Made by a program: the position numbers and the translations under genes. Under the pieces are notes generated by a model. The model had not been told where the DNA came from. It did no database searches and worked only from the letters and a program-made list of their open reading frames with translations. Shown here piece by piece: positions 5,398-59,375 of a stretch of 64,000 nt of DNA (its first letter is position 1; every line of letters begins with the position of its first letter). Source of the DNA: PVC group bacterium (GTDB lineage Bacteria; Omnitrophota; Gorgyraeia; B26-G9); assembly GCA_024231215.1 (NCBI GenBank), contig JAAEQR010000142.1:356593-420592 (forward strand), in the 5' to 3' direction.

Positions 5398-5486
5398 AGA
5401 TTCCCTTTTTTAAAAATTACAACTTATTTTGGTTAACAATTAATCTCCCGCACCTGCTCCGATAATTATTAACAGCATCTTATTTA

Positions 5487-6488
5487 TCATATTCCCCCCA
5501 CAGTTTTCAAGCGGTTATTACACAACACCAGCAAGGGGAAAAATATTCTTTTAAAAGTAATTTTCGTAGACATGTCCTGCAATAACTTTTTAGTATAAAA
5601 ATTCCTCGTCATTCGGGAAAATTCCTTTCGGGCAAACTTTTCATTAATAAAATAATCTGAAACAATTTTCCCTGACAAAAGCGCTCCAGAAATCCCATTT
5701 AAATAAAATGGATCGATCATTCCGCTCATCGTTCCCGCTAAAACTATCCCCTCTTTTTCTATGTTTTTATTCTGGGGAATACATCCGGAAGAAAATGTCC
5801 AGGTTTCAAAGGAAATCTTTTCTTTTTCCCAAATAAAATCTTCAAATCTTTTTAAGCTATCGCTATTCATTGAATTACGTGAGAATAGAAGCCCAAACAT
5901 ACAATCATCATATGATGCAAGATAAGCAAACTCTCCGTTTGTATAATCACCAAAACAAGATACTGCGATATTTTTATTTGGAGTAATTCCTGAAGCCCTA
6001 AACCCATGAATCATCTTATATTTGATACCGCATATTTGATAAGCCGGAATCTCTAATCCGCAGGAGACTATAGCTTTTGATCTGTCTTTTTTAAGAATAC
6101 TTAAAGTTTCCTGATCAAGCGGCTGATCATAAATAAACTTCACTCCTAAGCCACAAGCAATTTTATAAAGATACTTTTCAATTGAATTTTCATGGCCGCC
6201 TTTTAAACACAAAAAAGCATTCGGAGGGTTAACCGCATGAGTTTTTTTGTCATAAAAATATATCGAATGGCTTACCGCCCGGCGAAAACACCGCGATATA
6301 TCAATGCCAATGTATTCCGAGGTACGGTCAATATCCATATATTGCAAATGAACAGACGGATGCCATTTAGGATCACCTCCTACTGTTTTTCTGCTTTCAA
6401 TGATTTCGGCTTCAAAACCTGCCTTGGCTAAATTTATACCGGCAACCAATCCGGAAATGCCTGCTCCATAAATTTTAATTTTTTCCAC
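5487..6488 (-). CDS. FAD-dependent oxidoreductase, geranylgeranyl-reductase-like
   Basis: N-terminal dinucleotide fold IYGAGISGLVAGINLAKAGFEAEIIE; 333 aa; sits among isoprenoid genes. Confidence 0.55.
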   Translation of the reverse strand: MEKIKIYGAGISGLVAGINLAKAGFEAEIIESRKTVGGDPKWHPSVHLQYMDIDRTSEYIGIDISRCFRRAVSHSIYFYDKKTHAVNPPNAFLCLKGGHENSIEKYLYKIACGLGVKFIYDQPLDQETLSILKKDRSKAIVSCGLEIPAYQICGIKYKMIHGFRASGITPNKNIAVSCFGDYTNGEFAYLASYDDCMFGLLFSRNSMNSDSLKRFEDFIWEKEKISFETWTFSSGCIPQNKNIEKEGIVLAGTMSGMIDPFYLNGISGALLSGKIVSDYFINEKFARKEFSRMTRNFYTKKLLQDMSTKITFKRIFFPLLVLCNNRLKTVGGI

Positions 6489-6548
6489 TTTTAAATCCTT
6501 ATTGATTTTAAGCTAATCTTAAAACTTTATTATTTAAACATTTACTTA

Positions 6549-8027: not shown

Positions 8028-8039
8028 CCTCCAGCCCGG

Positions 8040-9209
8040 CTACTCCTTATCTCTCTGTTCCGATGATTTTTTCTGCAAAGATTGCGCATGCTGAATCTTT
8101 TTCTTTAATAGGTTAAATATTCGCGAGTTACTCCCCTTAGGATAAAAAATTACAAAAAGGGATGATAAATGTTCCCTTGTGCTGAAATCGGAATAATTAA
8201 AATTAATAAAAAATAGTAATGTTGTGAATATAATTAAAAAGGGAGAATAATTAAAAGTCATAATTAATGTGAGATATATCGGCAATATTACATGGGGGAA
8301 ATAAACGTGTAAAAGATTGTAAGGACTCGTCCATTCTCTTAATTCCCATCTATAATACGGATCATAAAAATCCTTTTTCTTTAAATTATTTATATCTAAA
8401 TAGACTGTCCGTAAAAGCAGCACCGCAAACAAAAAAACAATCGGTAAAACAGGCGAAAAAGTATAATAAAATGACATGGGCGGTACTTTTACTAAAATAA
8501 TCATCATAAATACAGCCCATGAGATTCTTTCAGTGAAAAGCGCTTTTCTGTAAAACTTTGTCATTCTTTCCACGCCTATTTTAGACCCAAGGGTCAAGGT
8601 TCCTGATTTAGCATCATTAACCGAATCAAATGCTTGATGACCTATTTCCTTGGCAAGACCAACTACGGTGGCACAGCAAGCAATTGCCCACATATCCCAT
8701 CCTCCGAATACTCCAAAAGCTGAAAACAAAAGCATTATCGGCAAAGGAGACTGAGCAAAACAAGCTGCTACTATTCCCAAACTTCTCCTCTCTTTAAACC
8801 TTATTGGTTTCAGAGAATAAAAAGTGGCTAGAAATAACTGTGTCATCCATAAATAAATAAAATAGCTTTTCCCGACAAACAGTATTCCTGTCAAGATTGT
8901 TAGCAAAAAAAGAATGCTCAGAATAGATACAGCTTTAGCATTACTAATATTTTTAAAAGTATTACTCTTGCCCTCTTGCGTATCCGGTTCCTTATCTCCG
9001 AATTCATTGACTAAGTACCCATAAAGACTAGATATGGAGGCAAAGGCAATAAAAACAAAAAAATCCCTGATAAATATAAGTGAGTACGTAGAATATGCCA
9101 AACAAATGTAGAAACATGTAATACAAAAAAAAGGCAATTTATCCGTAGCCCAATCTGTCCAGCGAAGAGTTTTAAGAATTTTTGCTTTTTCCCACATAAT
9201 TACTTCCAT
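8040..9209 (-). CDS. UbiA-family prenyltransferase-like integral membrane protein
   Basis: Polytopic. Motif NEFGDKEPD (N-D/E-xx-D-xxx-D type) after the second TM region and DSVND (DxxxD) about 125 aa later, as in UbiA/DGGGP-synthase/DPPR-synthase enzymes. The track ORF starts at 9344 but overlaps the upstream GT2 by 145 nt; the internal ATG at 9209 (MEVIMWEK) or 9197 is the likely start. Confidence 0.5.
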   Translation of the reverse strand: MEVIMWEKAKILKTLRWTDWATDKLPFFCITCFYICLAYSTYSLIFIRDFFVFIAFASISSLYGYLVNEFGDKEPDTQEGKSNTFKNISNAKAVSILSILFLLTILTGILFVGKSYFIYLWMTQLFLATFYSLKPIRFKERRSLGIVAACFAQSPLPIMLLFSAFGVFGGWDMWAIACCATVVGLAKEIGHQAFDSVNDAKSGTLTLGSKIGVERMTKFYRKALFTERISWAVFMMIILVKVPPMSFYYTFSPVLPIVFLFAVLLLRTVYLDINNLKKKDFYDPYYRWELREWTSPYNLLHVYFPHVILPIYLTLIMTFNYSPFLIIFTTLLFFINFNYSDFSTREHLSSLFVIFYPKGSNSRIFNLLKKKIQHAQSLQKKSSEQRDKE

Positions 9210-10117
9210 TCCAAATTTTGAGTGTTCACTTCTCGCAATAACAACCCATCTCGCAACCCTCGCATCTTCGCAAATATGGGTTTTTTGTAACCAAAAAGTA
9301 TTTTTTTCATCACAACCCACAGGAATTCCGCAACGATAAAGCATATAAATTTAATAAGGTTACACAAAGAAGCATTCTTCCGGACAAAGACCGCAGAGCC
9401 CCTTCCCATTAAATAATACCAACGCGGATTACGGTCTCCTCCTGTGCTTGCTGCAACACTATGCCATATCTTTGCTTCTGGCACATGGATTATCTTATAT
9501 CCCTTAGCTCTTGCGCGTACGCACCAATCAACATCTTCGAAATAGGAAAAATATACGGGGTCAAGCAACCCTATTTCATCAATAACTTTTTTCTTAATAA
9601 GCAATCCACACCCAATTATAAAATCAACTTCTCGAATATGATCATATTGCCCATCATCCTTGTTATTACAGGCGAGCGATTCAATCACATATTCCCGAAA
9701 ATTAATTTTGCCTCCAATTGAGTATAGATACCCGGGATGCAGTTCTAAGTGGTACATTTTGGGTCCTAATATCCCTATCTGCGCATTCTTTTCTCCCTCA
9801 GCAACAAGATGATCCAAAACAAAACTATCTACCATCGTGTCATTATTGAGCAAAAAGATATAGTCTGCCCCATTTTTAAGAGCATAACGCATGCCGACAT
9901 TATTGCCTTCGCTAAAACCAAGGTTTGTTTTGTTTTGAATTATTTCAATGTCCGGGAAATTTTCAGAGATACAAGACACTGACCCGTCAGTAGATCCATT
10001 ATCAACAAAAATCACTTCGTAATTAGGATACTTTAGCTGTCTGATACTATAAAGACATTTCAGGCTGTCTTGTTTACCATTCCAATTTAATATAATAATC
10101 GCTACTTTAGGATACAT
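9200..10117 (-). CDS. family 2 glycosyltransferase
   Basis: VAIIILNWNG...YEVIFVDNGSTDGS and DVDWCVRA motifs. Confidence 0.75.
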   Translation of the reverse strand: MYPKVAIIILNWNGKQDSLKCLYSIRQLKYPNYEVIFVDNGSTDGSVSCISENFPDIEIIQNKTNLGFSEGNNVGMRYALKNGADYIFLLNNDTMVDSFVLDHLVAEGEKNAQIGILGPKMYHLELHPGYLYSIGGKINFREYVIESLACNNKDDGQYDHIREVDFIIGCGLLIKKKVIDEIGLLDPVYFSYFEDVDWCVRARAKGYKIIHVPEAKIWHSVAASTGGDRNPRWYYLMGRGSAVFVRKNASLCNLIKFICFIVAEFLWVVMKKILFGYKKPIFAKMRGLRDGLLLREVNTQNLEWK

Positions 10118-11096
10118 TTTGCTCTTTTCGTTTATTTGTAAGCCGCATCAAAAATTTTCGGGACCGAAACCCCTCATTTTGAGCCTGCGCCATAAGATGG
10201 GAATAAATGTACCACTGAAAAGATTCTTTTTTTATGAATTTAGAAATAATCCAAAGCCATAAAGGTAAAACTTTACTGTTAAAAAACAATTCCCGAAGAA
10301 CTTCTTTGATAATTTTCTCCAATGACGAATAATCACGTAAACCAAATTCAAACAAAACATTTCTTTCATCAGTTAATTTTGATTCCCAGATTGCCAGTGC
10401 CGCCCCCAGCCTTTTATTATGCAAGATAAAGGGCTTGGGATCCTCAAAAATATGATAATGATAAACACAAGCATTAGGGTTATACTTAATACGCAGCCCT
10501 TTTTTTCCCAGGCGATGTCCTAACTCTCTATCTTCGTGAGCAGCATAAGGAAAATCTTCATCGAACAGCCCGTTATTTATTAAAAAATCTTTCTTGGCCG
10601 AAATATTACAGGTTATGAAATCAATCGGTCTAGCTTCCTCTAACCCTTTTATTTTATCAAACTCACCAATTAAATAGTGACTGGCAAATATAGGCACTGG
10701 AATACCCTCAGCCCAGGTAGCATATCCTAAGATTGCTATGTTTTCATCAGGCCATTTTTTATGGCAAATAACATGTTGTTCGAGAAAATCATCGGCCGGG
10801 ATAGTATCATCATTGATAAAAAGAACCAGAGGATATTTTGCTTCTTTAATACCTCGATTTCTGGCAATAGCTGGGCCCTTATTTTCCTGAAATAAGTAGC
10901 GTATGCTAATCTTGCACGACTGGCAATACTGCAAAATGCTCTCTCTGGTCCCGTCAGTAGAACCATCATCGACAATAATTATTTCAAAATTTGAAAGAGA
11001 AAAAGTCTGCCTATTAAAAGCATCCAGGACACGAAATAATACATCTTTTCGATTATAAGTCGGCATAATTACTGTAAGCATATCAAACCTCAACAT
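10107..11096 (-). CDS. family 2 glycosyltransferase
   Basis: LTVIMPTYNR...EIIIVDDGSTDGT. Confidence 0.7.
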   Translation of the reverse strand: MLRFDMLTVIMPTYNRKDVLFRVLDAFNRQTFSLSNFEIIIVDDGSTDGTRESILQYCQSCKISIRYLFQENKGPAIARNRGIKEAKYPLVLFINDDTIPADDFLEQHVICHKKWPDENIAILGYATWAEGIPVPIFASHYLIGEFDKIKGLEEARPIDFITCNISAKKDFLINNGLFDEDFPYAAHEDRELGHRLGKKGLRIKYNPNACVYHYHIFEDPKPFILHNKRLGAALAIWESKLTDERNVLFEFGLRDYSSLEKIIKEVLRELFFNSKVLPLWLWIISKFIKKESFQWYIYSHLMAQAQNEGFRSRKFLMRLTNKRKEQNVS

Positions 11097-11126
11097 TAAG
11101 ATTGTCTCAAAAAATTATATTGAAAA

Positions 11127-12011
11127 TCAAATAGGCGAAGAACTATCACAAATAAAATCAGCTAATTGGCAAAGCAACCCCGGAGATTCTAAAGCGCCTA
11201 CAGAATTCTTGGCCAAGGATATCTTTTTACGCGCCATTTTACGGACTTTTCTCTGTCCATGAACAGCAACATAAGACATTTTTCTCTGTTTTTTATCTTC
11301 ATCCGTTACTGTACTAATTTTTTTCTTGAATTCGGCAGCATCCAGTAAATCATCAAATATTTGGACAGCTATTGCAATATTTTTAGCATACGTTGTCAAA
11401 GCTTCTAACTCATTTTCATTTGCACCTGATACAATGGCTCCGCTTTTAACAGCAACATTGATCAATTCTCCTGTTTTATGAGAGCATATGTATTCAAGAA
11501 CATCCTTATCCATGAATTTTCCCCTGGAAAACATATCAACCACTTGACCGGCAATCAAACCTGTCATCCCGATAGATTTTGAGAGTTCCTGCATCAAATG
11601 TAACGCCAATGTAGCTTCCTTATAGCCATTGCTTACAAGTGCAAAAGCAGAACTTAATAAGCAATCACCCGCAACAACAGCCATATTTTCCCCGTACACT
11701 TTATGATTAGTGAGTTTTCCATAACGATAATCTCTATTTCCTGTTGCTGGCAAATCTTCATGAATAAAAAAGCCTGTATAAATGAGTTCAATTGCACAGG
11801 CAACAGGCATAAGCATTTCTGCCTTGCCTCCAATAATCTGGCCGGTAGCAATACATAGTAGTGCCGGCCTGAGGCGTTTACCACCGGCAAATATACTATA
11901 GCGCATTGCTTCAATCAGAATTTTTGGAATTCCTGCTTTTGGTTGAAGATATTCGTCCAAAGCTCTATCGATATCATTTTGTGTATTATCTAAATATGTT
12001 ATTATTTCCAT
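11127..12011 (-). CDS. polyprenyl diphosphate synthase (trans-IPPS) with a degenerate first Asp-rich motif
   Basis: GGKRLRP and KLTNHKVYGE motifs with an intact second motif QIFDDLLD. The first motif reads FIHEDLPATGNRDYRYG instead of the canonical IHDDLPxMDNDDLRRG. Confidence 0.7.
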   Translation of the reverse strand: MEIITYLDNTQNDIDRALDEYLQPKAGIPKILIEAMRYSIFAGGKRLRPALLCIATGQIIGGKAEMLMPVACAIELIYTGFFIHEDLPATGNRDYRYGKLTNHKVYGENMAVVAGDCLLSSAFALVSNGYKEATLALHLMQELSKSIGMTGLIAGQVVDMFSRGKFMDKDVLEYICSHKTGELINVAVKSGAIVSGANENELEALTTYAKNIAIAVQIFDDLLDAAEFKKKISTVTDEDKKQRKMSYVAVHGQRKVRKMARKKISLAKNSVGALESPGLLCQLADFICDSSSPI

Positions 12012-12981: not shown

Positions 12982-13763
12982 AGTTTTTGGATAAGATACG
13001 GCGAATTTTCAAGCCAAGAATGTTTCATTATTTCTATTTCCATCTGCGGGTTCTTTCCGCTAAAATAATCAAGAATACACAAATAATCATTCTGCCCTAA
13101 GCTATCTTTCTTAGGTTTAATACCTATCTTAGCTAAAAGTTCCTCTTTTTTCATAGCAATATCAGGCCACCAAGGAGTATCTAAATACCCCTGTTTTTGC
13201 AAATTCCAGCCTAAGTTCTTTAAAAAACTTTTTATCTTATTCGCATCTATATGCTCTGGATATGGAATACCCTCTTGCTTAGCATCTTTCATCCTCATTT
13301 TACAAAATACATTTGATTTATTAGGAATACAAATAAAAATGACTTTTCGGCTTACCCGGCTCAACTCCCTTAAAAAATTATCAAGCTTCGAGATATACCA
13401 CAAAGCCGCAAAATTCCAGCTTAGATCAAAAGCCTTATCATCAAACGGTAAAACTTTATTATCAATAGCACAATGTTCAATATGTACAGCTAAAGCTACT
13501 TCTTGCCAAACATCCTTGATCTTATGAATCCTTTCCTCATCAAAATCAGTAATAGTCACTGGAATTTTCTTAGCTACCCACCATAGGCTATTAATGCCAG
13601 AAACTCCCGTCATCCCAAAGCTAGGTGTTTCGAGAACATTCTCAATCCCATATTTATTTTTCATATCTTCAAAATAACCATGCAAAATAAATCGTTCATA
13701 AGTCGATCCCAAACCCTCATGATGGTTTTTAAAATAATCACCCCAAGTAGTGCTAATTGCCAT
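12930..13763 (-). CDS. hypothetical protein, possibly class I SAM-methyltransferase-like
   Basis: Gly-rich loop LETPSFGMTGVSG followed by an acidic ITDFDEE strand, like MTase motifs I/II. Weak. Confidence 0.35.
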   Translation of the reverse strand: MAISTTWGDYFKNHHEGLGSTYERFILHGYFEDMKNKYGIENVLETPSFGMTGVSGINSLWWVAKKIPVTITDFDEERIHKIKDVWQEVALAVHIEHCAIDNKVLPFDDKAFDLSWNFAALWYISKLDNFLRELSRVSRKVIFICIPNKSNVFCKMRMKDAKQEGIPYPEHIDANKIKSFLKNLGWNLQKQGYLDTPWWPDIAMKKEELLAKIGIKPKKDSLGQNDYLCILDYFSGKNPQMEIEIMKHSWLENSPYLIQKLWAHHQYLIFAPKESKK

Positions 13764-13775
13764 ACTTGCCTCTTT

Positions 13776-15317
13776 CTAGTTTTTTATTCGATATACCGGA
13801 CATAATGGCGAATCAATAATTTTCTCAAACTCAGCTCCATCCCCCATAAGTTTTTTAGCGAGACTGTTCGCCTGAGAAAGCGTTCTATTTAATAGTTGTT
13901 TTTTTTGAATACGCTCCGCCCCCCATAACTTCTTAGCTAGCGGTGAGGGCCAATAAAGACTTTCTGAAAAATAAACTGTCCTTCCTTTGAAAAGCTCCTC
14001 AGCCGAATCAACTAAATTAAAAAAATCTCTAACATTTGATGACCAGTTTAGCCAAAAACTTTCCTCTAACCTATTAATTGTCTGCTTATTTGGATACCGA
14101 GTGTCTCGGATAAGCATATTCGGCCGGCCGCTAAGAATAAAAATGTTTTCTTTGTCATTTACTGAATACCAGTAGCAAACACCGAAATTATATTTTGAGA
14201 ACATTATCGCTCTAGGCTCATATATTTCATGTAACTCTGCTACAACTCTCTGTATTTCTACAGCATTCCTTTTTTCCTCAGATACTAACATATTCAATGA
14301 CACCACTAAATAAAAAAACAACACAACTGCAACAAGTGCCTTCCCCTGATTCTTTTTCTTAAACAGTTTAATAATTCCTTCAGACGCAAAAAAACTAACT
14401 GGTATAAATGTTATTATGAGATGGTCTCCGGAAAGCAATCCTAAGTTAAAAATATATAATAAAAACGGCAAGAACCAGGCCCCAAAGAAAATTAATACTT
14501 TTCTGTTTTCTTTTAACAAAACAACCACTCCCCCTAAAGCAAACAGGGAAATTATGTTAAAAGAAACGCCATACACTTTAGCCAACTCAAAAAAAACATA
14601 TCCGCTTATCTCAAAAAAATTAACTGTTTTCACAAAAAGTTCCGGAACAAAAACAGCCGCTGCAAAAACCTCCACAACCCTTTCCGGTTTACACAAGAAT
14701 AAAACTGCTAAAATCAAAAAAGGCAATAAAAACTTAAATAGCCCTATTTTCCCAGCTTTCTTTTGCACCACGAGACATCCCAAAGGAAACAATGCCAATA
14801 ATGAGGTAGGCGTTATAGAACAAGCGACAACTTCAAATAAACCGGCCGCCAAGAAATGTCCCTTAAGGATTAAAATTGCTGCCAACATTATCACAGCCAA
14901 CTGCGGGATATATACCTCCCCATGCAAAGAAAACAACATAAATGTTCCAGAAAATAATAAGATAAATGCGGCAATCAGACTTTGCAAACGATTATTCGTA
15001 AAATTAAGCGTCAGCATATACATACAAACAACACAAATAGCCGAAGCCAACACGGAAAGATATCCGAGAGTAAGCAAGGAACTAGCCCCCCCCATTCTCA
15101 TAAAAAAATGCATAATTGCCCCAATAACATAATAACCAAAATGGACAACCGTAGCATCAAAGCTCGACAAACTGCGAGCATATGTATAGGTATCACCATT
15201 TGCCGGCGGATGAATCATAAAAAATGGCAAAACAACAAGTACCCCTAGGAATAGAAGGGTTTCTATTTTATGTTTTTCCCAATTCTTTTTTAAAAATTTA
15301 GAGATTTTATTTTTCAT
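13776..15317 (-). CDS. GT-C-type membrane glycosyltransferase-like protein (ArnT/PMT/DUF2723-like)
   Basis: About 9-11 N-terminal TM helices with an early periplasmic-loop motif HPPANGDTYTY. Soluble C-terminal domain; 513 aa. Confidence 0.4.
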   Translation of the reverse strand: MKNKISKFLKKNWEKHKIETLLFLGVLVVLPFFMIHPPANGDTYTYARSLSSFDATVVHFGYYVIGAIMHFFMRMGGASSLLTLGYLSVLASAICVVCMYMLTLNFTNNRLQSLIAAFILLFSGTFMLFSLHGEVYIPQLAVIMLAAILILKGHFLAAGLFEVVACSITPTSLLALFPLGCLVVQKKAGKIGLFKFLLPFLILAVLFLCKPERVVEVFAAAVFVPELFVKTVNFFEISGYVFFELAKVYGVSFNIISLFALGGVVVLLKENRKVLIFFGAWFLPFLLYIFNLGLLSGDHLIITFIPVSFFASEGIIKLFKKKNQGKALVAVVLFFYLVVSLNMLVSEEKRNAVEIQRVVAELHEIYEPRAIMFSKYNFGVCYWYSVNDKENIFILSGRPNMLIRDTRYPNKQTINRLEESFWLNWSSNVRDFFNLVDSAEELFKGRTVYFSESLYWPSPLAKKLWGAERIQKKQLLNRTLSQANSLAKKLMGDGAEFEKIIDSPLCPVYRIKN

Positions 15318-16294: not shown

Positions 16295-17383
16295 TCATCT
16301 TAACCTCAAAAAATTCCATCCTACCCGGCATAATGTCTTTGCATGATGCAAAATATTCGTATAGCTGGCATTAGCCAATGGACAATAGCATTCTTTGTTC
16401 TTAATACACTTTCGTGCTTTATTCGCCTCTTCAGAAAACCAGACCTTTTTAAAATCGTAATCCGCTTCTCTCAGGTTACCAATACATTTTGCTGTTATAC
16501 AACACATCCAGACATCACCCTCAGGCGCTACCTGCGCGGAAGCAAAACCAGCAAAACACGGGATAACCTGACGATGCTCCCGTAAAATCTGTTTCACCAT
16601 GCGATAATACTCAATGCGAAACACTCTAGTAATTTTCCCTGCTTTACTAAAATCACCGGTTTTCAGTTTGTCGCTAAGGAAATCTACAGCTTTTGCATAT
16701 TCCTGATAATCAGGAGAAATTCCGGCATTCATGGTTCCAAGCTCCTGACGCTCTTCGGCAATTTCCGTAACATAGGAATCCGGCTTCAATGCACTTAAAT
16801 GCTCGTAAATTTCCGGAATACGCGAAACATTAAATCTCGAAATTACAGTGTGAATACCCACGGAAAGATTCGGTAGTTTAAGCGCTTTCAAAGCAAAAAA
16901 TGTCTTTTTAGCCTTTTCATAATTTCCCGGAACTCCGCGAATAACATCATGCCTTTCTCCGATATCGTCGATAGAAACATTAATCACTATCTGAGACTTC
17001 TTGCAATACTCAGCAATCGTTTTAACCAAATCCGGGATTTTATCTGCCAGCAAACCGTTTGTAGGGATATTAATAATTGCCGGGCCACAATCCTGATATA
17101 AAGAACATACAATCTGTTCGATATCACTGCGAAGAAACGGTTCTCCCCCGCTTATTGTTACCCATACAACACTTTTGCCAAATTTTTTAATTATTTTTTT
17201 CCACTCTACCAGGGATAATTCCTCAGACTTTTTTTTGTATATATTACAGGTTTTACAACTTGAGTTACACTGATAACTGAGACTAAGGGTAAGATTCATC
17301 GGCAGTTTACGAGGATAACTAAACAAGCGAAATAAATAGTATCCAGGAATTTTTGAAATTACTTTCAGCATATTTAATCCCAC
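16295..17383 (-). CDS. radical SAM protein with C-terminal SPASM/twitch-like Cys cluster
   Basis: CNSSCKTC (CxxxCxxC) at the N-terminus. C-terminal cysteines VIPCFAGF...VWMCCITAKCIGN...CIKNKECYCPLA. Confidence 0.7.
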   Translation of the reverse strand: MGLNMLKVISKIPGYYLFRLFSYPRKLPMNLTLSLSYQCNSSCKTCNIYKKKSEELSLVEWKKIIKKFGKSVVWVTISGGEPFLRSDIEQIVCSLYQDCGPAIINIPTNGLLADKIPDLVKTIAEYCKKSQIVINVSIDDIGERHDVIRGVPGNYEKAKKTFFALKALKLPNLSVGIHTVISRFNVSRIPEIYEHLSALKPDSYVTEIAEERQELGTMNAGISPDYQEYAKAVDFLSDKLKTGDFSKAGKITRVFRIEYYRMVKQILREHRQVIPCFAGFASAQVAPEGDVWMCCITAKCIGNLREADYDFKKVWFSEEANKARKCIKNKECYCPLANASYTNILHHAKTLCRVGWNFLRLR

Positions 17384-18264: not shown

Positions 18265-19040
18265 TTGTCTTCATTTTGGGAACCACTAGCTACAAATTCA
18301 TCATAATTTTTAAAAAGATACGACAAATGCTTAATTATTTTCTTAAATGGCGCACGAAAGCGTAACGTTATCCAAAATGCTTCTTTTACAACATTACGGG
18401 ATATTTTAGAATCACCATGTTTTCTCTCTTTAAAAAGAATCGGAATTTCGTGAACACTGAAGTTGTTTTTGAATGTCAAATGTATCATCTCTATCTGAAA
18501 AGCATAACCATCTGACTTTATGCTATCAAGATCTATCTTTTCCAACACTTTCCGATTATAACATCTATATCCAGCAGTAAAATCCCATATTGGTTTGACC
18601 ATTACATACGAAACATACATATTTGCAAATTTGCTAAGCAACAGCCTTCGGAATTTCCATCCCTCGACCCTTACCCCATTTACATACCTGCTTCCAATAA
18701 TTAAATCATACTTCTTTGCTGCCTCAAGAAAATCCTGTAGATACTTGGGATCATGAGAAAAATCCGCATCTATTTCAAAAATCAGATCAGCTTCCTTCGC
18801 CAGAGCTACCTTAAACCCTGTTACATACGCTGTACCCAGTCCCATTTTTTCGGGACGATGTAATACATTTATTCGGGGATCCTGTTTGGCCAGATTATCA
18901 GCAATATCTCCGGTACCATCCGGTGAATTATCATCAACTATGATTAGATTAAATTCAGGCTGAAGCGCAAAAATCTGCGTAACAAACTCTTCAAGATTTT
19001 TAGCTTCATTATATGTTGGAATAACCGCAAACACTTTCAT
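18261..19040 (-). CDS. polyprenyl-phosphate hexosyltransferase (Dpm1-like GT2; dolichyl/polyprenyl-phosphate mannose or glucose synthase family)
   Basis: VIPTYNEAKNLEEF...IIVDDNSPDGTGDIA...HRPEKMGLGTAY. First gene of the long minus-strand operon. Confidence 0.75.
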   Translation of the reverse strand: MKVFAVIPTYNEAKNLEEFVTQIFALQPEFNLIIVDDNSPDGTGDIADNLAKQDPRINVLHRPEKMGLGTAYVTGFKVALAKEADLIFEIDADFSHDPKYLQDFLEAAKKYDLIIGSRYVNGVRVEGWKFRRLLLSKFANMYVSYVMVKPIWDFTAGYRCYNRKVLEKIDLDSIKSDGYAFQIEMIHLTFKNNFSVHEIPILFKERKHGDSKISRNVVKEAFWITLRFRAPFKKIIKHLSYLFKNYDEFVASGSQNEDK

Positions 19041-19427
19041 ATAAATTTCTCACTTTTTCATCAACACATTGAAAGTACTTATGTTAAACATTTTACATCA
19101 TATACAGATAAGTAACAAGTGATTTTAAAATATATCATGATTCCTTATAGGTTGCAAATATACTCGCAAATTATTATGCGATTTCTTTACAAATTTCGAT
19201 ATATCAACTCACAACACATTAAAAACAAAGAGCTTGAAAGAAATCTGCCCACTAATCAAAAATTGTAGATTCTTTATAACCGGTACAAAAAATAACTCTG
19301 CAGGATATTTAATAAATAAGCGTTCACACCCAAAAACCAACAAGCTAATTCCTTTTATTTCAATATTTTAGCAGTAAATATTTTTTCTTTCTTTATCTCT
19401 CAATCGTTATAAGATATAATAAAAATT

Positions 19428-20195
19428 ATGAAGATATTGAAAATACTCCTCTTATGCTTAATTTTAAGTTATTTTAGGCCGGTCCTCCTAGGAGCAGATG
19501 TTATCTATTTAAAAAACGGCAGAACCATGGAAGGCTTGATAAAAAAAGAAACTCCTGAATATATAGAGTTAGAGCTGGGGTTTGGAATAACTAAACTAAA
19601 AAAAAGCAAAATTAAAAAAATCAAACGCTCTCAGGGAAAAGAGATCGAACTCATGCAGGAAACATGGGAAGTAGAAGCCAAAGAACGCCAACTAAAAAAA
19701 GCAGAGTATCTTGAAGCAGAAGCAAAACGAAACACCGAACAAGCAGTAAAAAGAAACGCAGCAAAGAAAATCGATACAATTGTAAAAAAAATATCCAAAA
19801 AAAGTGTCGTTCAATATATAGAAAAAAGAAACAGTATCGGAGTAAACGCGCTGATAAATGAAGAACTTCGCGCAAAATTAATTGTCGATACAGGCGCTAC
19901 AAGTATACTCTTAACCCTAGAATTCGCCGAGCAGTTAAACATCGATCTCTATAATGCAAAAGAAATCAAGATAAAACTTGCAGACGGCCGCATCTCAAAA
20001 GCAAAAGCCATAACATTAGATAGTGTGAAAGTTCAGGATATGGAGGTCAAACGGGTAGATGCTGTTATTTTACTCGAAGAAGACACTTTTTCATACTGGG
20101 ACGGATTATTAGGCATGTCTTTCCTGAATAATTTCATCTTCCGGATAGATGCTCAAAACAAACAATTAATACTGGAAACAGAAGTGGATAAGTAA
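19428..20195 (+). CDS. retropepsin-like (clan AA) aspartic protease with signal peptide and Lys/Glu-rich coiled coil
   Basis: LIVDTGATSILLT active-site motif and C-terminal GLLGMSFLNNF; N-terminal hydrophobic leader. Confidence 0.6.
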   Translation: MKILKILLLCLILSYFRPVLLGADVIYLKNGRTMEGLIKKETPEYIELELGFGITKLKKSKIKKIKRSQGKEIELMQETWEVEAKERQLKKAEYLEAEAKRNTEQAVKRNAAKKIDTIVKKISKKSVVQYIEKRNSIGVNALINEELRAKLIVDTGATSILLTLEFAEQLNIDLYNAKEIKIKLADGRISKAKAITLDSVKVQDMEVKRVDAVILLEEDTFSYWDGLLGMSFLNNFIFRIDAQNKQLILETEVDK

Positions 20196-20197
20196 CT

Positions 20198-20455
20198 CTA
20201 CTGCTTTTTCAAGTGGATAAAAAGGCGCCCCCAGTTTTTACTGTCCTTATCGATCCGGTGATACATCTTACGGATATGTTTTTGATCAAGAAAACGCAAT
20301 ACATGTTTTTTAAGCTGTCCGCTCCCCTTCCCCGGAATTATCTCAATAAGCCTGATCCCTTTCTCCACAGCTTCATCAAGTACACGCATAAGCTCTGCAT
20401 CTATTTTTTTGCCTTTATTAAAAATATCGTGTAAGTCTAGTTTTAGTTTAGCCAT
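20198..20455 (-). CDS. Smr-domain protein
   Basis: LDLHD...IEIIPGKGSGQLKKHVLRFL matches the Smr LDLHG...IIHGKG pattern; 85 aa. Confidence 0.6.
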   Translation of the reverse strand: MAKLKLDLHDIFNKGKKIDAELMRVLDEAVEKGIRLIEIIPGKGSGQLKKHVLRFLDQKHIRKMYHRIDKDSKNWGRLFIHLKKQ

Positions 20456-20469
20456 TATTCACTACTTCT

Positions 20470-20706
20470 CTAATAATTAAAAAGATCTTTCAGTTTATAC
20501 TCTTTACCTGTAGCTTGATTTAAAGCCCTGAGAATCTTAGATTTGACATTCGGGGTCAATCTTCTGCCCTTTACCGCACGCGATATCATCTTATGCGTAA
20601 TTTGTTCTGTTGAATTAGCCACAAGATCATTCGGTTTTAATTCATGTTCTACTATTATCCCGGCAATCGGCTGTTCCCCAAGGTCTCTTTTAATATCATT
20701 ATTCAT
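20470..20706 (-). CDS. small hypothetical protein (possible DNA-binding)
   Basis: 78 aa. Start overlaps the upstream epimerase stop by 4 nt (ATGA). Confidence 0.3.
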   Translation of the reverse strand: MNNDIKRDLGEQPIAGIIVEHELKPNDLVANSTEQITHKMISRAVKGRRLTPNVKSKILRALNQATGKEYKLKDLFNY

Positions 20707-21119
20707 TTAATCCGCTTAGCTCTCTTATCTGTATCTATAAGCTCAATATTCATACCTTGTTTAGCAAAGATAAACGCTATATTCTCATTATCAAACGCTT
20801 CTCCCGGCTGAGGAGCAGCTAATACTCTTAGCCCCAAATCTTTGACTCTGTCTATCTCTTTATCAAGATCAGGACATTTAAAACACAAATGATGCAATCC
20901 CCCGCCCCTCTGCGCAAAAATATAAACCGGAGAAGTTGAGTCTGTCGGCTCAATCAATTTCACAGGCAAAGATCCCTCTTTTTCAAGAAACACAACGTTT
21001 ACCTTCTGTCGTGTATTAGTAACGATTTCAGTCATTTGCTCATACCCAAACACCTTTTTCCAGTGTTCTATCCCTGAATCCAAAGATCTTACGGCAATAC
21101 CTATATGGTCGATATTCAT
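20703..21119 (-). CDS. VOC-family protein, methylmalonyl-CoA epimerase-like
   Basis: MNIDHIGIAVRSLDSGIEHW; 138 aa. Confidence 0.65.
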   Translation of the reverse strand: MNIDHIGIAVRSLDSGIEHWKKVFGYEQMTEIVTNTRQKVNVVFLEKEGSLPVKLIEPTDSTSPVYIFAQRGGGLHHLCFKCPDLDKEIDRVKDLGLRVLAAPQPGEAFDNENIAFIFAKQGMNIELIDTDKRAKRIK

Positions 21120-21270
21120 ATTTTACTGCTCCTTTCTAAGTTCTATCCATACTACTCCTGCGACGCATCTATATAGATAACTATACTTTATATACACAAT
21201 ATTTGTCAACACCTTGCATGCAGTTAGAAGTCATTTCTACCTAATATTATAAAAATGAGTTAATATCCCC

Positions 21271-21298
21271 TTGAAATAAACAAACCTTATGGTATACT
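21271..21298 (+). promoter_or_regulatory. sigma70-like promoter (TTGAAA, 16-nt spacer, TATACT) for the 725-aa rSAM gene
   Basis: Hexamers read directly; AAGGA RBS before the GTG start at 21342. Confidence 0.35.
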
Positions 21299-21341
21299 TT
21301 AATACATTTTCTTAAAAAAATTAACAAAAAAGGAAAAAATA

Positions 21342-23519
21342 GTGAAAAAAATAAATAAGATATTACTGAATCTGAAAATATTAATTATAGTCCAAGCTAT
21401 ATTATTTGCAAATATTGCCACTGCTGATTTTGCACAATCTAAAGATTATAATACATCCCAAAACAGTATAATCGACACAACCCAACTATCCCCTCGACTT
21501 TTTGTAAACAATCAAGGACTTATCAATTTATTTTCAACAACTACGAATATCACAGAACCTTCGATTATCAATAATAAATATCTTCATGCCTCAGATTCTA
21601 CTAAAATCACATCTTCTATTGTTATTGCCCTAAATAATTCCCCACGTGAAGACAGAGTACTTTTAGAACAAGGTTTAATAGATTGCCCAGATATTCTCAA
21701 AAAGTCATTAATTGCTTTTGTAAAACACGGAGAACTTGCCCGTAATGACATTTTGCAAATATCTATTAATCAGGGTAAAACCTTTGAAATCAACAAGAAA
21801 CACCGCCATTTAACAATAACCTATCCTGAAATCATTTCTTCTCAAAGAATTATCTATGAATTGGAATCGGTATTAGAGACATCCAAAGAAACAATTACTC
21901 AAGTTATTAGTCTTCATCCAGATTTAATAGAAGATGGGTTTTATACAAGCAACTCATTTCCAAATAGAGCATTTAATAATCCACATATCTGGAGACAACT
22001 TATAACCTCAAAAGTCCAAATAGCTCCCCTAGAATTATATACCGGCAAATCTATTTCCTGTGTCTTCCTAACAAAATTTTGCCCTGTGGGCTGTAAACAT
22101 TGTTTTTTTAAATCCCCTCGCCCTGGAACAAGAAAAAATCAAGATGATGCATTAACCCCTGAAGGTGTCAATCGATTAATAGATTTTTTAAACAAAGCAA
22201 ATACAGGATATTTGCTCATTTCTGGCGGAGGAGATCCTTTCATGGAACTCAAAGCAATTGAAAAAATAGCAGAACATGTCAAAGCTAATAAGATCGTGCT
22301 TGTTACAAGCGGCTTTTGGGCTAAAGATTTTAATACCGCTAAAAAAATAATGCAAAAAATATATACTGCTTTCAATAAAAGACCGGCAAATCGGCCAGAA
22401 ATAGTATTGCGCTTAAGTCTAGATTCCGGACATGCAGAAAATGTAGGCATAACTCCTGCCATAAATTTAATACGACTTTTTCAAAAACATTATAAGGATG
22501 AACAAAATTTCAAACTTCAGATGCATTCACTATTAGGCGATACAACAATCAATAATGTATTAAAACATTTTGAAGTCAAAGAAATGTTTTACTCCAATGA
22601 ATCTTTTTCAGACTTAATCAAACAGAAACATCAAAACCATATTATAAAAATAAGTTCCCAAAAACTAGAAACAACCTTATCCGATGGTTTTAAACTTATA
22701 ACTGGTTTTGCAAAGTTATTCAATGCTAATTTCGAAGTCGACCTACATGACCCAGAGATTGTCAAAAAAAACACAGCAGTTTTCGATCATGATATACTAG
22801 AAAATGAAGCCGATAATACTGCTGTCTCTTTCAATTGCAACGGAGAAAAAGGATTGGATTTCACGATCACATACGACGGCATTGTAAGAGTATGGGGCGC
22901 AAATTCACCCCATAGAGTAAACTCCCTTTATAAAGATGACTATGAAGCAATCATCGATCAAGCGTTTAATGATATCAACAGTCTGGCTTACATAGAAAAA
23001 GGATATTCCTATCGTGAACGCATTATTAATGAAGTTAATCCATTAGCTGCAATCAGGACAAAAGCAATTAATATACGTGATTATATCGGAGATATAATCA
23101 ACGAGGAAGCAAAAACAAGACTTTACTTGTCAATAAGAATTATACAGGATTATATTCGCGAAGGAAGAATTGATTCCAGCCAAGTCAAATCTTGGCCTGT
23201 GGCATTACAAAAACTCGTTTCTCTACCGAAAAAAGACCTTATCAAAGCCTACAATGAAGCTGAATTTTCTATTGTAGACCAATATATTAAAACCCCCAAT
23301 ATTCAGTTAAACGATTTATTAAAACTATACCGGTTGATTAAACGCGGACATTATGATGCAACTATTCAAGAACTAAGCGATAAAATATCGGCAAGCAAGC
23401 AATTATCTGAAACCATGAAAAAACAATTCTTCGAAGCTATTGCTCAAAAACAAACAGACTGCAAAAAAAACAACTCTGAGAACTTCACCCTAGACCAATT
23501 ACTTGCTGTTAGCATCTAA
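21342..23519 (+). CDS. large radical SAM protein with N-terminal signal-peptide-like segment
   Basis: CPVGCKHC (CxxxCxxC) at about residue 245, followed by ISGGGDPF and VLVTSG. N-terminus MKKINKILLNLKILIIVQAILFANIATADFAQS. About 230-aa domain of unknown type before the core and about 300 aa after it. Confidence 0.6.
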   Translation: MKKINKILLNLKILIIVQAILFANIATADFAQSKDYNTSQNSIIDTTQLSPRLFVNNQGLINLFSTTTNITEPSIINNKYLHASDSTKITSSIVIALNNSPREDRVLLEQGLIDCPDILKKSLIAFVKHGELARNDILQISINQGKTFEINKKHRHLTITYPEIISSQRIIYELESVLETSKETITQVISLHPDLIEDGFYTSNSFPNRAFNNPHIWRQLITSKVQIAPLELYTGKSISCVFLTKFCPVGCKHCFFKSPRPGTRKNQDDALTPEGVNRLIDFLNKANTGYLLISGGGDPFMELKAIEKIAEHVKANKIVLVTSGFWAKDFNTAKKIMQKIYTAFNKRPANRPEIVLRLSLDSGHAENVGITPAINLIRLFQKHYKDEQNFKLQMHSLLGDTTINNVLKHFEVKEMFYSNESFSDLIKQKHQNHIIKISSQKLETTLSDGFKLITGFAKLFNANFEVDLHDPEIVKKNTAVFDHDILENEADNTAVSFNCNGEKGLDFTITYDGIVRVWGANSPHRVNSLYKDDYEAIIDQAFNDINSLAYIEKGYSYRERIINEVNPLAAIRTKAINIRDYIGDIINEEAKTRLYLSIRIIQDYIREGRIDSSQVKSWPVALQKLVSLPKKDLIKAYNEAEFSIVDQYIKTPNIQLNDLLKLYRLIKRGHYDATIQELSDKISASKQLSETMKKQFFEAIAQKQTDCKKNNSENFTLDQLLAVSI

Positions 23520-23520
23520 T

Positions 23521-23600
23521 GTTCTATTAAATCCTTTTCAAAATCTAATAACTCTTTCTTTAAATCAGTTCCTAGGGCATACCCACCCAGGGAATAACAG
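23521..23600 (-). pseudogene. diverged duplicate of the ogt 3-prime end (encodes ...GGYALGTDLKKELLDFEKDLIEH*)
   Basis: Reverse-complement translation matches the Ogt C-terminus GGYALGVKLKKELLDFERDL. About 75-90 bp at roughly 80 percent nucleotide identity to 24322-24400. Confidence 0.45.
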
Positions 23601-23624
23601 GGTCAGACTAAACTTCCCCTGAAC

Positions 23625-24191
23625 TCAGCCCCGCGTTGTTACCCCTCTATTGGTTGACATCTCGTCCTTGACATCAAACACAAAGCCGTGATTACGAAGG
23701 AATTCCCCTATTTCTTCCAAGAGAATGGCTTTTTGCTTTGGGTGGACAAAAGATGCCAAGATAATTCTCTTGGGACAAACTCCGGGCTTTTGGAACAGAT
23801 TGAGCGTATAGACCGATTCCAATTCGAATCCATCATCATAATGCTCAAGCGTCAGAGCGGCGAGATCTTGTTTGTCTATCCATACGCTGGACGTAGGCAA
23901 AAAACCGGTTCCATAGACAACAAGGGATTCTCCATCCACCTCAAGAATATGCTTCCTATTTCTCTTAAGTAGGGTGTATGGAATAAAGCATACCCCTACA
24001 TAGCCAAATATCAGCCAAATCAAAAAGAAAGGGGAGGGGTCCACTAAAGCCGCAACCGTGATAAAGATCGTCAGTGGTACCCATATCAGCCAAAATAGAA
24101 TCAGGAATCCGGTAAAAAACCAATCTTTCCTATATTTTCGCGGATTTATTGCATACTTTGTATTGTTTTTATTCGTCTTCATTGCATCCAT
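23625..24191 (-). CDS. hypothetical membrane protein (bacterial PH-like / DUF304-like)
   Basis: Two adjacent TM helices then a soluble domain; 188 aa. Odd GC-rich tail ...NRGVTTRG. Confidence 0.4.
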   Translation of the reverse strand: MDAMKTNKNNTKYAINPRKYRKDWFFTGFLILFWLIWVPLTIFITVAALVDPSPFFLIWLIFGYVGVCFIPYTLLKRNRKHILEVDGESLVVYGTGFLPTSSVWIDKQDLAALTLEHYDDGFELESVYTLNLFQKPGVCPKRIILASFVHPKQKAILLEEIGEFLRNHGFVFDVKDEMSTNRGVTTRG

Positions 24192-24276
24192 CTTCTGCCA
24201 ACATCATAATCACCTACTGGGTTGACCCCGTTATTCTGTCTGCTAGCAACCAACTTCTAAAGTGGAGGTCTGACCC

Positions 24277-24310
24277 CTTGCTTACCTTGCTTACTTGCTT
24301 ACTTGCTTAA
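24277..24310. repeat. short tandem repeat (CTTGCTTAC) x about 4
   Basis: cttgcttac cttgcttac ttgcttac ttgcttaa read directly, 12 bp downstream of the ogt stop. Confidence 0.6.
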
Positions 24311-24321
24311 TATGCTTTTCC

Positions 24322-24639
24322 CTACAAATCTCTCTCAAAATCCAATAACTCTTTCTTTAACTTCACTCCTAAGGCATATCCGCCTATTTTCCCGCCGCTG
24401 GCAATAACGCGATGGCAAGGGATAAGTAACGGCAAAGGGTTTTTCTTGAGCGCCTGGCCTACTGCACGCTGTGAATTTGGCCGGCCAATACGTTCAGCTA
24501 TCCACTTATAGGTCCTGACCTGGCCGGGTTTAATCTCACACGCCGCTTTTAATACCGCGCGTTCAAATACCGTAAAATCGCGCAGAATCATATCTATACT
24601 CTTTGGAACATCTAATGTTATCTTTTTTTGTTTTTTCAT
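24322..24639 (-). CDS. ogt: methylated-DNA--protein-cysteine methyltransferase, minimal single-domain form
   Basis: LIPCHRVI active-site motif and winged-helix DNA-binding region; 105 aa. Start overlaps the uvrC stop (ATGA). Confidence 0.75.
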   Translation of the reverse strand: MKKQKKITLDVPKSIDMILRDFTVFERAVLKAACEIKPGQVRTYKWIAERIGRPNSQRAVGQALKKNPLPLLIPCHRVIASGGKIGGYALGVKLKKELLDFERDL

Positions 24640-25889
24640 TTCTTCTTCGAAATCTTGGCCGGAAACATCTCTTTTTTCCTTCTTAATCGATGATAAGAAA
24701 CCGCAAACCTGTGAGCTTCATCTCTTACACGCATAAGCAAATGTAGTGCCTTAGAATCGCGCGGCAAAGCTATTGGGGTTTCCTGCCACTGTACATAGAT
24801 ATGTTCAAATTTTTTAGCGATACTCGCCACCGGGATATTAACCCCAGCTTTTAAGAGTTTCCGGCAGGCACATTCTAAATGCCCCTTTCCTCCGTCAATT
24901 AGTATTACGTCCGGTAATTCCAGTTTTTTGGCTAAACTTCCCTGATAACGCCGCCCTACAACCTCTTCAATCATCGCATAATCATTAATTCCGTCTACAG
25001 TTTTTATCTTAAACCGACGATAGTTTTTTTTCTCCGGCTTACCATTTTTAAACCGCACCATTGATCCCACTGCTTCGTTACCAAATATATTTGATATATC
25101 AAACCCTTCGATAATATTCGGTCTATTTTTCAGCCGCAGTACAGATTGCAAAGCCGCAACCTGATCTGAGACCTTCCCCTTTGAATACTTTGACGGCACA
25201 GTACTCAAACTTTCTATTTCATCACGCAATCTTAATGCTCGTTCAAAATCATACTCTAAAGAAGCTGCTTTCATCTCACTAGACAGTTTATTAATAAGAG
25301 CTGCTTTTTTACCGTTTAAAAATAATAGAAGATTATCAAGTACACGCGAATATTCCTTTTTATCACTTTTGTTAATACATGGGCCCAGACACTGATCAAG
25401 GTGATAATTCAAACAGACTGATTTTGGCATTACACGGCAAGTACGAAGCGGGAAAATCCGGCGCATAAATGCAAGCGCCTGACGCAAGAGCCGCACAGAA
25501 GTATAAGGCCCAAAATAACTAGCCCCATCATTCTTACGACGGCGGACAATAACTAAACGCGGATATTTTTCATTAAAAGTTAATTTTAGTAAAGGATACG
25601 CCTTATCATCTTTAATCGCGGTATTGTATTTTGGTTTATACTCTTTAATCAAGCCAGATTCAAGAATCAGTGCTTCAGCTTCTGTAGTGGTAGTAATACT
25701 ATCTATATCTTTAATGTTATTTACTAAAGCTTGCTGTTTTACGTTCTTAGTTGTTTTACTGAAGTATGAGCCTACCCTCTTTTTTAAAGAAGAAGCCTTG
25801 CCGATGTAAATTATCCCACCGGAGCTATCCTTCATTAAATACACCCCGGGATTATCCGGTAATGTTTTCACCTTGTCTATCAGCTTCAT
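24636..25889 (-). CDS. uvrC: excinuclease ABC subunit C, short form lacking the C-terminal (HhH)2 domain
   Basis: GIY-YIG N-terminus (PGVYLMKD...IIYIGKA), UVR motif (FERALRLRDEIESL) and an RNase-H-like endonuclease region (IEGFDISN...VGSMVRF...DEAHRF). Ends after the nuclease domain at 417 aa. Confidence 0.7.
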   Translation of the reverse strand: MKLIDKVKTLPDNPGVYLMKDSSGGIIYIGKASSLKKRVGSYFSKTTKNVKQQALVNNIKDIDSITTTTEAEALILESGLIKEYKPKYNTAIKDDKAYPLLKLTFNEKYPRLVIVRRRKNDGASYFGPYTSVRLLRQALAFMRRIFPLRTCRVMPKSVCLNYHLDQCLGPCINKSDKKEYSRVLDNLLLFLNGKKAALINKLSSEMKAASLEYDFERALRLRDEIESLSTVPSKYSKGKVSDQVAALQSVLRLKNRPNIIEGFDISNIFGNEAVGSMVRFKNGKPEKKNYRRFKIKTVDGINDYAMIEEVVGRRYQGSLAKKLELPDVILIDGGKGHLECACRKLLKAGVNIPVASIAKKFEHIYVQWQETPIALPRDSKALHLLMRVRDEAHRFAVSYHRLRRKKEMFPAKISKKK

Positions 25890-58485: not shown

Positions 58486-58500
58486 GATCCCCTATTTCTA

Positions 58501-59229: not shown

Positions 59230-59268
59230 TTAAGATAGTTCCTATCTTAACACAAAAACAAGAAAAAA

Positions 59269-59326: not shown

Positions 59327-59375
59327 AGACACTGGAAATTAATTCATATTGCCAGAGCCCCTAAAAATCATTGAA

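Follow-up and report, generated by a model that had tools for sequence, protein, structure and literature searches.

In a 64,000-nucleotide stretch of the genome of an Omnitrophota bacterium (assembly GCA_024231215.1, contig JAAEQR010000142.1, positions 356,593 to 420,592; hereafter the window), we analysed a gene that codes for a 725-residue protein with a radical S-adenosylmethionine (SAM) core. Very probably, this protein is a catalytically intact member of an undescribed family of radical SAM enzymes of ~500 residues, whose barrel is nearest to those of the SPASM/twitch group, which has no Cys residues for auxiliary clusters and possesses a C-terminal domain of its own. In the same assessment, the genetic partners of the family indicate a substrate of the nucleotide type, and ~205 residues were gained at the N-terminus in the Omnitrophota lineage. 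These added residues begin with a predicted Sec-type leader, which raises the question of where the enzyme operates.

A word-indexed search yielded 12 relatives of the window protein, 10 of them ~500 residues long and aligning with its residues ~205-725. An exhaustive profile search collected 164 representative clusters at E<=1e-30, and 91 representatives with a near-complete core were recovered. The family is found in Legionellaceae, Chlamydiae, Paracaedibacteraceae, Omnitrophota, gut Clostridia, Acinetobacter and one metagenome-assembled genome (MAG) of Bathyarchaeota. No specific Pfam, NCBIfam or PADLOC model corresponds to the window protein, its NCBIfam matches being partial and below threshold, and our literature search found no paper describing the family or any exported or membrane-bound radical SAM enzyme. 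None of the defence families modelled in PADLOC-DB 2.0 matches the window protein, which rules it out as a known defence protein. Phage-encoded relatives were likewise discarded, as IMG/VR contains no viral members of the family and BFVD gave generic folds only. A separate clade (P0002, P0023, P0030, P0032, P0039, P0057, P0058, P0060, P0067, P0069, P0075, P0078, P0079 and P0084) starts with a short conserved motif, WP[IV]E..[HN]P, within the first ~15-55 residues, and many of its members have a C-terminal DUF386 fusion.

The open reading frame (ORF) and the features of its enzymatic part are as follows, with conservation given for the 91 representatives and confidence as the predicted local distance difference test (pLDDT) of the AlphaFold2 (AF2) model.

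21342..23519, forward strand: ORF of 725 residues with a GTG start, made up of a leader, a linker, an orphan domain, the radical SAM core and the family-specific C-terminal domain
21957..22631, forward strand: radical SAM partial (beta/alpha)6 barrel, residues 206-430, with six beta-alpha units at pLDDT >90 in the AF2 model and with Foldseek and profile matches
22080..22103, forward strand: CPVGCKHC, the CxxxCxxC [4Fe-4S] site (C247/C251/C254), whose three Cys are 100% conserved
22224..22238, forward strand: GGGDP, the glycine-rich SAM-binding motif, residues 295-299, with G295-G297 conserved at 96-99% and P299 at 90%
22632..23471, forward strand: family-specific C-terminal domain, residues 431-710, composed of a beta-hairpin subdomain (440-517) and a helical bundle (534-706), pLDDT >95

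The ORF is as given in a preliminary description of this stretch, and the three motifs reported there are all present, at residues C247-C254, 295-299 and, for VLVTSG, 319-324. The protein belongs to the radical SAM superfamily by its CxxxCxxC motif, its PF04055 score above the gathering threshold and its partial (beta/alpha)6 barrel with the glycine motif. Two Pfam models pass their cut-offs, Fer4_12 (35.1 bits, cut-off 22) and Radical_SAM PF04055 (32.4 bits, cut-off 29.5), and their matches are confined to the N-terminal part of the core (residues 235-338; 243-327 for PF04055). The top Foldseek matches to the AF2 model are all radical SAM enzymes, with EpeE/YydG, BlsE and anSME in the lead. 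Based on its residues, the gene product is predicted to be a catalytically intact radical SAM enzyme. Beyond those of the CxxxCxxC motif, no Cys is conserved among the representatives, and the family thus appears to have no auxiliary cluster.

The ~300 residues that follow the core had been regarded as a flanking domain unlike anything recognizable. They are instead an integral part of the enzyme, since they are conserved in all of the ~90 full-length family representatives and are modelled with pLDDT >95. The conserved residues of this domain are the invariant G513 together with W518, E564, L594, Y595, R599 and Q602, and no Pfam model matches it.

The closest characterized relatives are the YydG/EpeE peptide epimerases (Bacillus subtilis; PDB 8ai1-8ai6; TIGR04078), with which the window protein shares the CxxxCxxC motif and the radical SAM barrel. 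They are its best Foldseek match (E 3.5e-8, TM-score of 0.60 on the target, ~15% identity), its best profile match (E 3e-15 over the first ~180 core positions) and its best partial NCBIfam match. Nevertheless, the window protein reaches 33.4 bits where the TIGR04078 equivalog cut-off is 300 bits, which places it outside that family. Unlike the epimerases, the window family has neither the auxiliary [4Fe-4S] cysteines nor a conserved Cys as H-atom donor, adds a helical C-terminal domain of ~200 residues, and is partnered by nucleotide enzymes rather than by a precursor of ribosomally synthesized and post-translationally modified peptides (RiPPs) and an exporter. Further fold matches are the peptide maturases anSME, SuiB, SkfB and ChlB. 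The SPASM/twitch subgroup thus provides the closest solved structures, but the window protein has no auxiliary-cluster Cys and no match to PF13186, and it is not a member.

For other radical SAM enzymes, viperins included, the cluster-binding segment is the only part that matches the window family. The family resembles viperins and their prokaryotic counterparts (pVip) in having nucleotide kinases and other nucleotide enzymes among its genomic partners, and some members are found in defence-island settings. Eukaryotic viperin has an N-terminal membrane-binding helix. The window protein scores 19 bits against the viperin cut-off of 180 bits and matches it in the cluster-binding segment alone, its C-terminal domain is different, and its leader is uniformly hydrophobic rather than amphipathic; it is not a viperin. 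PADLOC pVip models gave matches of ~80 residues (E 1e-4 to 9e-8) in three relatives and none in the window protein. Several neighbourhoods of family genes contain defence-related genes: a Gabija-like OLD-TOPRIM ATPase and a UvrD helicase immediately 5' of the gene for P0280, a member with a leader (L049 3547-9707), the SIR2 protein PDC-S25 and an integrase island beside the Acinetobacter albensis gene (L001 8408-12482), and DarT in a Legionellales-like contig (L003 8788-14897). P0031 is a fusion with a ThsA-type SIR2.

The genetic environments of the family point to nucleotide chemistry. Some members are fused to NUDIX domains at either end (five representatives), to adenosine deaminase, to a dCTP-deaminase-like domain, to a histidine phosphatase or to DUF386. 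In two alphaproteobacterial lineages, a CYTH gene overlaps the start of the radical SAM gene, and one of them also has an adenosine deaminase. An RmlD-like reductase gene lies 3' of the family gene in Acinetobacter albensis, and the family gene of a Phycisphaerales MAG has an RmlD-like gene as its neighbour on the other strand. An RpiB-NUDIX fusion is encoded downstream of the family gene in a Legionellales-like contig. At 35 loci, 77 co-directional neighbours were counted, among them 14 NUDIX proteins, five thymidylate kinases, three deoxynucleoside kinases, four RmlD/epimerase proteins, three adenosine deaminases and three GFO/IDH/MocA proteins; RiPP-type partners, namely precursor peptides, proteases or ABC exporters, were not prominent in this census. 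Because the fusions and operon partners are nucleotide enzymes, these associations indicate that the substrate of the family is a nucleotide, a nucleoside-phosphate or a nucleotide-sugar. This pattern is comparable in its logic to that of prokaryotic viperins associated with kinases.

A separate question from that of localization is whether the substrate might be a peptide or a protein. The enzyme would then be a YydG/EpeE-like modifier, for instance an epimerase, possibly working at the membrane on giant or envelope-bound proteins that are about to be, or are being, exported. In favour of this, no other characterized relative comes nearly as close in profile and fold as YydG/EpeE, the peptide maturases named above are among the fold matches that follow it, and the window gene itself has no nucleotide-enzyme neighbour. 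We nonetheless consider a peptide substrate rather improbable, given the score of 33 bits relative to the 300-bit YydG cut-off, the missing auxiliary-cluster cysteines, the fusions to nucleotide enzymes, and a census dominated by NUDIX proteins, nucleotide kinases, deaminases and sugar-nucleotide reductases in which no RiPP-type partners stand out.

The part of the gene that precedes the core harbours the following features.

21271..21298, forward strand: promoter-like TTGAAA-16-TATACT with a TG-extended -10 element, 10 of 12 positions matching, within a 222-bp intergenic gap
21331..21334, forward strand: Shine-Dalgarno sequence AGGA, 7 nt ahead of the GTG start, as read from the sequence
21342..21425, forward strand: Sec-type leader, residues 1-28, with n-region MKKINKILLNLK, h-region ILIIVQAILFANI and c-region ATA followed by DF
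21426..21641, forward strand: Ser/Thr/Asn/Gln-rich linker, residues 29-100, of low complexity (47% of these four residues), pLDDT 25-45 and devoid of secondary structure
21642..21956, forward strand: orphan N-terminal domain, residues 101-205, with no homologue and a frame kept open by selection

An annotation artefact might be suspected, in which a wrong start, the fusion of two genes or readthrough of a pseudogene would have attached 205 unrelated residues to the enzyme. The N-terminal domain has no homologue whatsoever, and the exact 725-residue product is absent from a public gene-call collection that does contain MurJ of the same genome. Against an artefact, the first 204 codons are free of stops, for which the chance is ~2e-7 at the given composition, whereas each of the five other frames carries 10-23 stops. 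There is no in-frame ATG or GTG ahead of the core; TTG138 and TTG174 are the sole alternative starts, and neither is preceded by a Shine-Dalgarno sequence. The GTG start, for its part, is preceded by a good Shine-Dalgarno sequence and by the promoter-like site, and the arrangement of a leader followed by the core recurs in independent relatives. Because the frame is stop-free and lacks an internal start, we conclude from these sequence data that the 204 N-terminal codons are truly coding and that their frame is maintained by selection. A wrong start or a fusion of genes is thereby ruled out, and an artefact of any of these kinds is highly improbable.

The gene upstream of the ORF is divergent, and the promoter-like site lies in the gap between the two. 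The site proposed as the gene's own promoter thus exists at the position given above, and it is a plausible predicted promoter of the radical SAM gene; such matches show no enrichment in the region, 14 having been counted where shuffles gave an expectation of 11.5 +/- 3.2.

Segment 29-205 found no match among 5.8 billion proteins or in Pfam, and it has no significant similarity to the pre-core regions of the closest relatives, which rules out an N-terminal domain common to the clade. The helical propensity of residues 101-205 is weak. The idea of a divergent CYTH domain was prompted by the CYTH gene of the same size that directly precedes and overlaps homologues; it was rejected at the sequence level (BLASTP E = 26, no Pfam match), AF2 confidence being too low in this region for a fold comparison. 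By its sequence, the segment is a true orphan kept open by selection. The N-terminal flank had been estimated at ~230 residues with no recognizable match; the lack of matches holds for residues 29-205, and the family core begins at ~205-208 rather than at 230.

The N-terminus of the window protein had been likened to a Sec signal, and this is borne out by rule-based tests. The n-region carries a net charge of +5 and is followed by the h-region, with an uncharged run of 16 residues and a C-flank of -1. The c-region has small residues at positions -3 and -1 (A26-T27-A28, then DF). Together, the basic n-region, the h-region and these small residues conform to the rules for signal peptidase I (SPase I) substrates. 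Residues 4-31 form the only hydrophobic segment of the entire protein, and residues 2-33 are helical in the AF2 model. A twin-arginine translocation (Tat) signal (S/T-R-R-x-F-L-K) is ruled out by the complete lack of arginine in the leader, and a lipoprotein signal for signal peptidase II by the lack of a lipobox Cys at +1, there being no Cys in residues 1-114. With a hydrophobic moment (muH) <=0.26, the leader is uniformly hydrophobic and not amphipathic, and we discarded an in-plane helix like that of viperin. Other proteins of the window with a single leader are of envelope types, namely LptE, BamD/YfiO, a YhdP-like protein, an L,D-transpeptidase with LysM, and SNase, PEP-CTERM and tetratricopeptide repeat (TPR) proteins, and several of their leaders end like ATA|DF (LFA|DA, VFA|EE and VQA|QE). 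The three other radical SAM proteins of the window are all leaderless. Thus, by every rule applied, the leader is predicted to be a Sec-type signal oriented N-in/C-out.

Whether this leader is conserved in homologues was posed as a test of its relevance, and the answer is divided. A hydrophobic N-terminus is absent from 76 of the 91 representatives, which partly bears out the result named beforehand as counting against export, and it is present in 15, the distribution of scores being bimodal. The leader recurs in the nearest relatives of the window protein and in three other lineages. All five of the nearest relatives (P0014, P0028, P0021, P0017 and P0001) have one (chance 4.6e-5). When columns were resampled, the closest relative carried a leader in 99.2% of replicates, and four or more of the top five did in 93.6%. 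Strict monophyly of the six-member leader clade was dropped, with 16% bootstrap support in a single neighbour-joining tree, in favour of this nearest-neighbour statistic, which does not depend on topology. The three other groups that hold leader-bearing members have bootstrap values of 98-100%. The 15 leaders consist of a basic n-region and a strongly hydrophobic stretch. Their N-flanks have net charges of +2 to +7 in 14 cases and their C-flanks range from -4 to +2; none contains a twin-arginine motif, and the h-region is below the threshold for a transmembrane (TM) helix in five. The segments between leader and core are unrelated among the relatives and vary from ~20 to 400 residues. Judging from these comparisons, the conserved element is the leader itself and not the segment behind it. 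Because a hydrophobic N-terminus is the exception among the representatives, the family as a whole is of a cytoplasmic type by sequence, and the leader is a lineage-specific addition.

Similar leader ends that contain a Trp residue are found in P0017, P0066, P0014, P0021 and P0072 (FSDIAWA, FADITWA, GWAQG, SWSQS and NWQTPAFA). They hint at a shared origin or at a dedicated recognition step rather than at a generic SPase I site.

The preliminary description left a choice between an unusual exported radical SAM enzyme and an uncleaved signal anchor that holds a cytoplasmic enzyme at the membrane. As far as sequence rules go, this dilemma is real: the leader points outward and predicts crossing, whereas the chemistry points inward. 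The Fe-S cluster, SAM and low-potential reductant that radical SAM reactions require are all cytoplasmic. Tentatively, and at somewhat less than an even chance, we favour a working Sec-type signal, real export and an enzyme that is active in another cell, with a membrane tether close behind. The leader would carry the polypeptide to and across the inner membrane in the N-in/C-out orientation. No turnover would be expected in the periplasm because of the cofactors just named, and the enzyme would remain idle there. Only in the cytoplasm of a prey or host cell (these nanobacteria are host-dependent) would it become active and modify nucleotides. Action in the cytoplasm of another cell would thus reconcile the membrane rules with the enzymology. 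We infer the substrate class, the actual export, the cleavage of the signal and the delivery into another cell. Sec-secreted toxins, such as ADP-ribosylating toxins and adenylate cyclases, similarly combine a Sec signal with an enzyme that is useful only inside the cytoplasm of another cell; they need only soluble NAD or ATP, whereas a radical SAM effector would need an Fe-S cluster built in its target, and we know of no precedent for an Fe-S-dependent effector. An unlikely but more specific proposal along these lines is that the leader-bearing branch comprises offensive viperin-like effectors. The apo enzyme would be exported by Sec and delivered to the prey or host, would take advantage of the victim's Fe-S assembly, SAM and reductant, and would make a toxic or chain-terminating nucleotide analogue. 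If true, it would be without precedent both as a radical SAM enzyme shown to act outside its producer and as an effector that relies on host Fe-S assembly.

Several observations weigh against export, and some of them speak for a tether that faces the cytoplasm, in which the uncleaved leader would hold an ordinary radical SAM enzyme at the inner membrane by a long flexible linker, with the producer supplying Fe-S machinery, SAM and reductant. The 76 leaderless members and the cytoplasmic partner enzymes of the family are of this kind, as are the enzymology, which demands the cytoplasm, and the intact catalytic residues. Other domains of a cytoplasmic type, namely SAM methyltransferase, PHP, P-loop-like and B12-radical-SAM domains, are likewise found in relatives with a leader, and P0076, the sister of two leader-bearing giant proteins, has a two-helix hairpin at the membrane with basic flanks on both sides, which predicts that its bulk is cytoplasmic. 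Eukaryotic viperin offers a precedent for a membrane-anchored radical SAM enzyme. Genes for secretion or delivery are absent from either side of the window gene, the exact leader clade has the low bootstrap value given above, and the nucleotide substrate is argued solely from gene association while the closest characterized relative, YydG, acts on a peptide. To our knowledge, no radical SAM enzyme is exported or periplasmic, and our full-text search of the literature for such an enzyme found none. We also know of no Fe-S assembly, SAM supply or sufficiently low-potential reductant in the periplasm. Known exported Fe-S proteins use the Tat pathway. The small subunits of hydrogenases and the NapG/NrfC-type ferredoxins likewise combine an Fe-S protein with an N-terminal export signal, but theirs is a twin-arginine signal and they cross the membrane folded, with their clusters, unlike proteins with the 15 leaders described here; none of the Tat substrates known to us is a SAM-dependent radical enzyme. 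What speaks against the tether is the leader itself. The positive-inside rule predicts the opposite orientation for 14 of the 15 leaders, which have basic N-flanks and neutral or acidic C-flanks, and the uncleaved anchor envisaged earlier is therefore a poor fit. Several h-regions are too short or too weak for a stable TM anchor, the small residues at -3 and -1 are like those in the cleaved signals that envelope proteins of this genome carry, and a non-amphipathic helix excludes an in-plane anchor of the viperin type. The tether is thus a serious contender, with a probability of roughly one in three. An enzyme that is exported and active in the periplasm or at the surface of its own producer, with cluster, SAM and electrons from a source not yet recognized, would account equally well for the leader, and Omnitrophota live in anoxic settings, where we infer that an extracellular Fe-S cluster could survive. 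We find this hard to credit, as a protein with no Tat motif would cross unfolded and cluster-free, and because of the missing periplasmic cofactors and literature precedent mentioned above.

A similar paradox exists on a larger scale in the same phylum. Two preprints report that long proteins of Omnitrophota very often join signal peptides or TM helices to Radical_SAM, NUDIX, methyltransferase and other domains of a cytoplasmic type. They propose prey-directed roles and concede that it is difficult to accept the outside locations predicted; they deem a membrane-anchored content of cytoplasmic enzymes plausible and some predicted outside locations 'highly unlikely', which again favours a tether. 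The window protein resembles these 'Archaeovorin'-type giants in its phylum and in the N-terminal signal peptide or TM segment that precedes cytoplasm-type enzyme domains, and the core of its family is embedded in proteins of 1,148-6,629 residues, which include most of the leader-starting ones. It differs from them by its size of 725 residues, in which a single leader and a single enzyme are combined and no other segment is hydrophobic, and because of this simplicity the question of its topology is unambiguous and tractable. In an Omnitrophota MAG (L039), P0028 and the product of the next gene (942 residues) share a leader and an N-terminal module of ~380 residues and have unrelated C-terminal cargos (4759-9039 and 9134-11962). 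The module is also found in P0064 and has no Pfam match. The 942-residue neighbour has an internal twin-arginine-like SRRSFLKF and a hydrophobic stretch, and both proteins end in a GGIDL-containing region.

MurJ of the window is 100% identical to that of a MAG classed as a PVC group bacterium, and the close relatives all belong to Candidatus Omnitrophota. The genetic environment of the window gene is that of a variable region. In the closest available relative genome (L050), two blocks are conserved, YhdP-BamD-LptE-holA-MurJ-UvrC-Ogt and GT2-GT2-radical SAM/SPASM-epimerase. Between them, the window has an insert of ~5.3 kb (19040-24322) that codes for an aspartyl protease, Smr, a 78-residue ORF, a glyoxalase, the radical SAM protein and a 188-residue protein and contains an ogt remnant, and L050 has genes for a T2SSE/PilZ-like ATPase and a 119-residue protein (13223-15250). 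The GC content of the radical SAM gene is at the low end of the window range (z about -1.6 to -1.8). Because of this location, the low GC content and the patchy taxonomic distribution of the family, the sequence data suggest that the gene was acquired horizontally. As had been noted, it lies beside the scar of an ogt duplication: 10 nt past its stop codon, positions 23529-23587 (59 nt) repeat the 3' end of ogt (24326-24384) at 80% identity. The intact ogt and this copy bracket the gene of the 188-residue protein (23625-24191, reverse strand), which has two TM segments, no significant Pfam match and a foreign composition (GC content of 46.6% at third codon positions, z = +3.6). The arrangement looks like an insertion that duplicated the end of ogt.

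Other genes of the window deserve mention. Its UvrC (24636-25889, reverse strand) has 417 residues and lacks the C-terminal helix-hairpin-helix (PF14520) of the 467-residue UvrC of L050; the 3' end of the gene overlaps ogt and its 5' end overlaps murJ. The short UvrC may be tied to the rearrangement around ogt. Within 57622-62102 (reverse strand), two of the other radical SAM proteins (242 and 287 residues) adjoin an ORF of 807 residues, a putative anaerobic ribonucleotide reductase; in that case, the two would be NrdG-like and activase-like. A radical SAM/SPASM gene (16295-17383, reverse strand) is part of a glycosyltransferase cluster also conserved in L050.

These analyses bring to light a sizeable radical SAM family with no description in databases, whose partners, including NUDIX proteins, nucleotide kinases, deaminases and CYTH proteins, predict new radical chemistry on nucleotides. 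The retention of a Sec-type signal on intact radical SAM enzymes contradicts the known limits on where such chemistry can take place. In the two Omnitrophota preprints, the same paradox concerns proteins of 10,000-147,000 residues, in which topology is untestable. The 725-residue window protein and its relatives of 570-583 residues represent a small instance of this paradox of exported cytoplasmic enzymes, which reporter fusions can answer. Either outcome would be informative: a radical SAM enzyme exported to act in other cells, or leaders with basic N-flanks that insert against the positive-inside rule.

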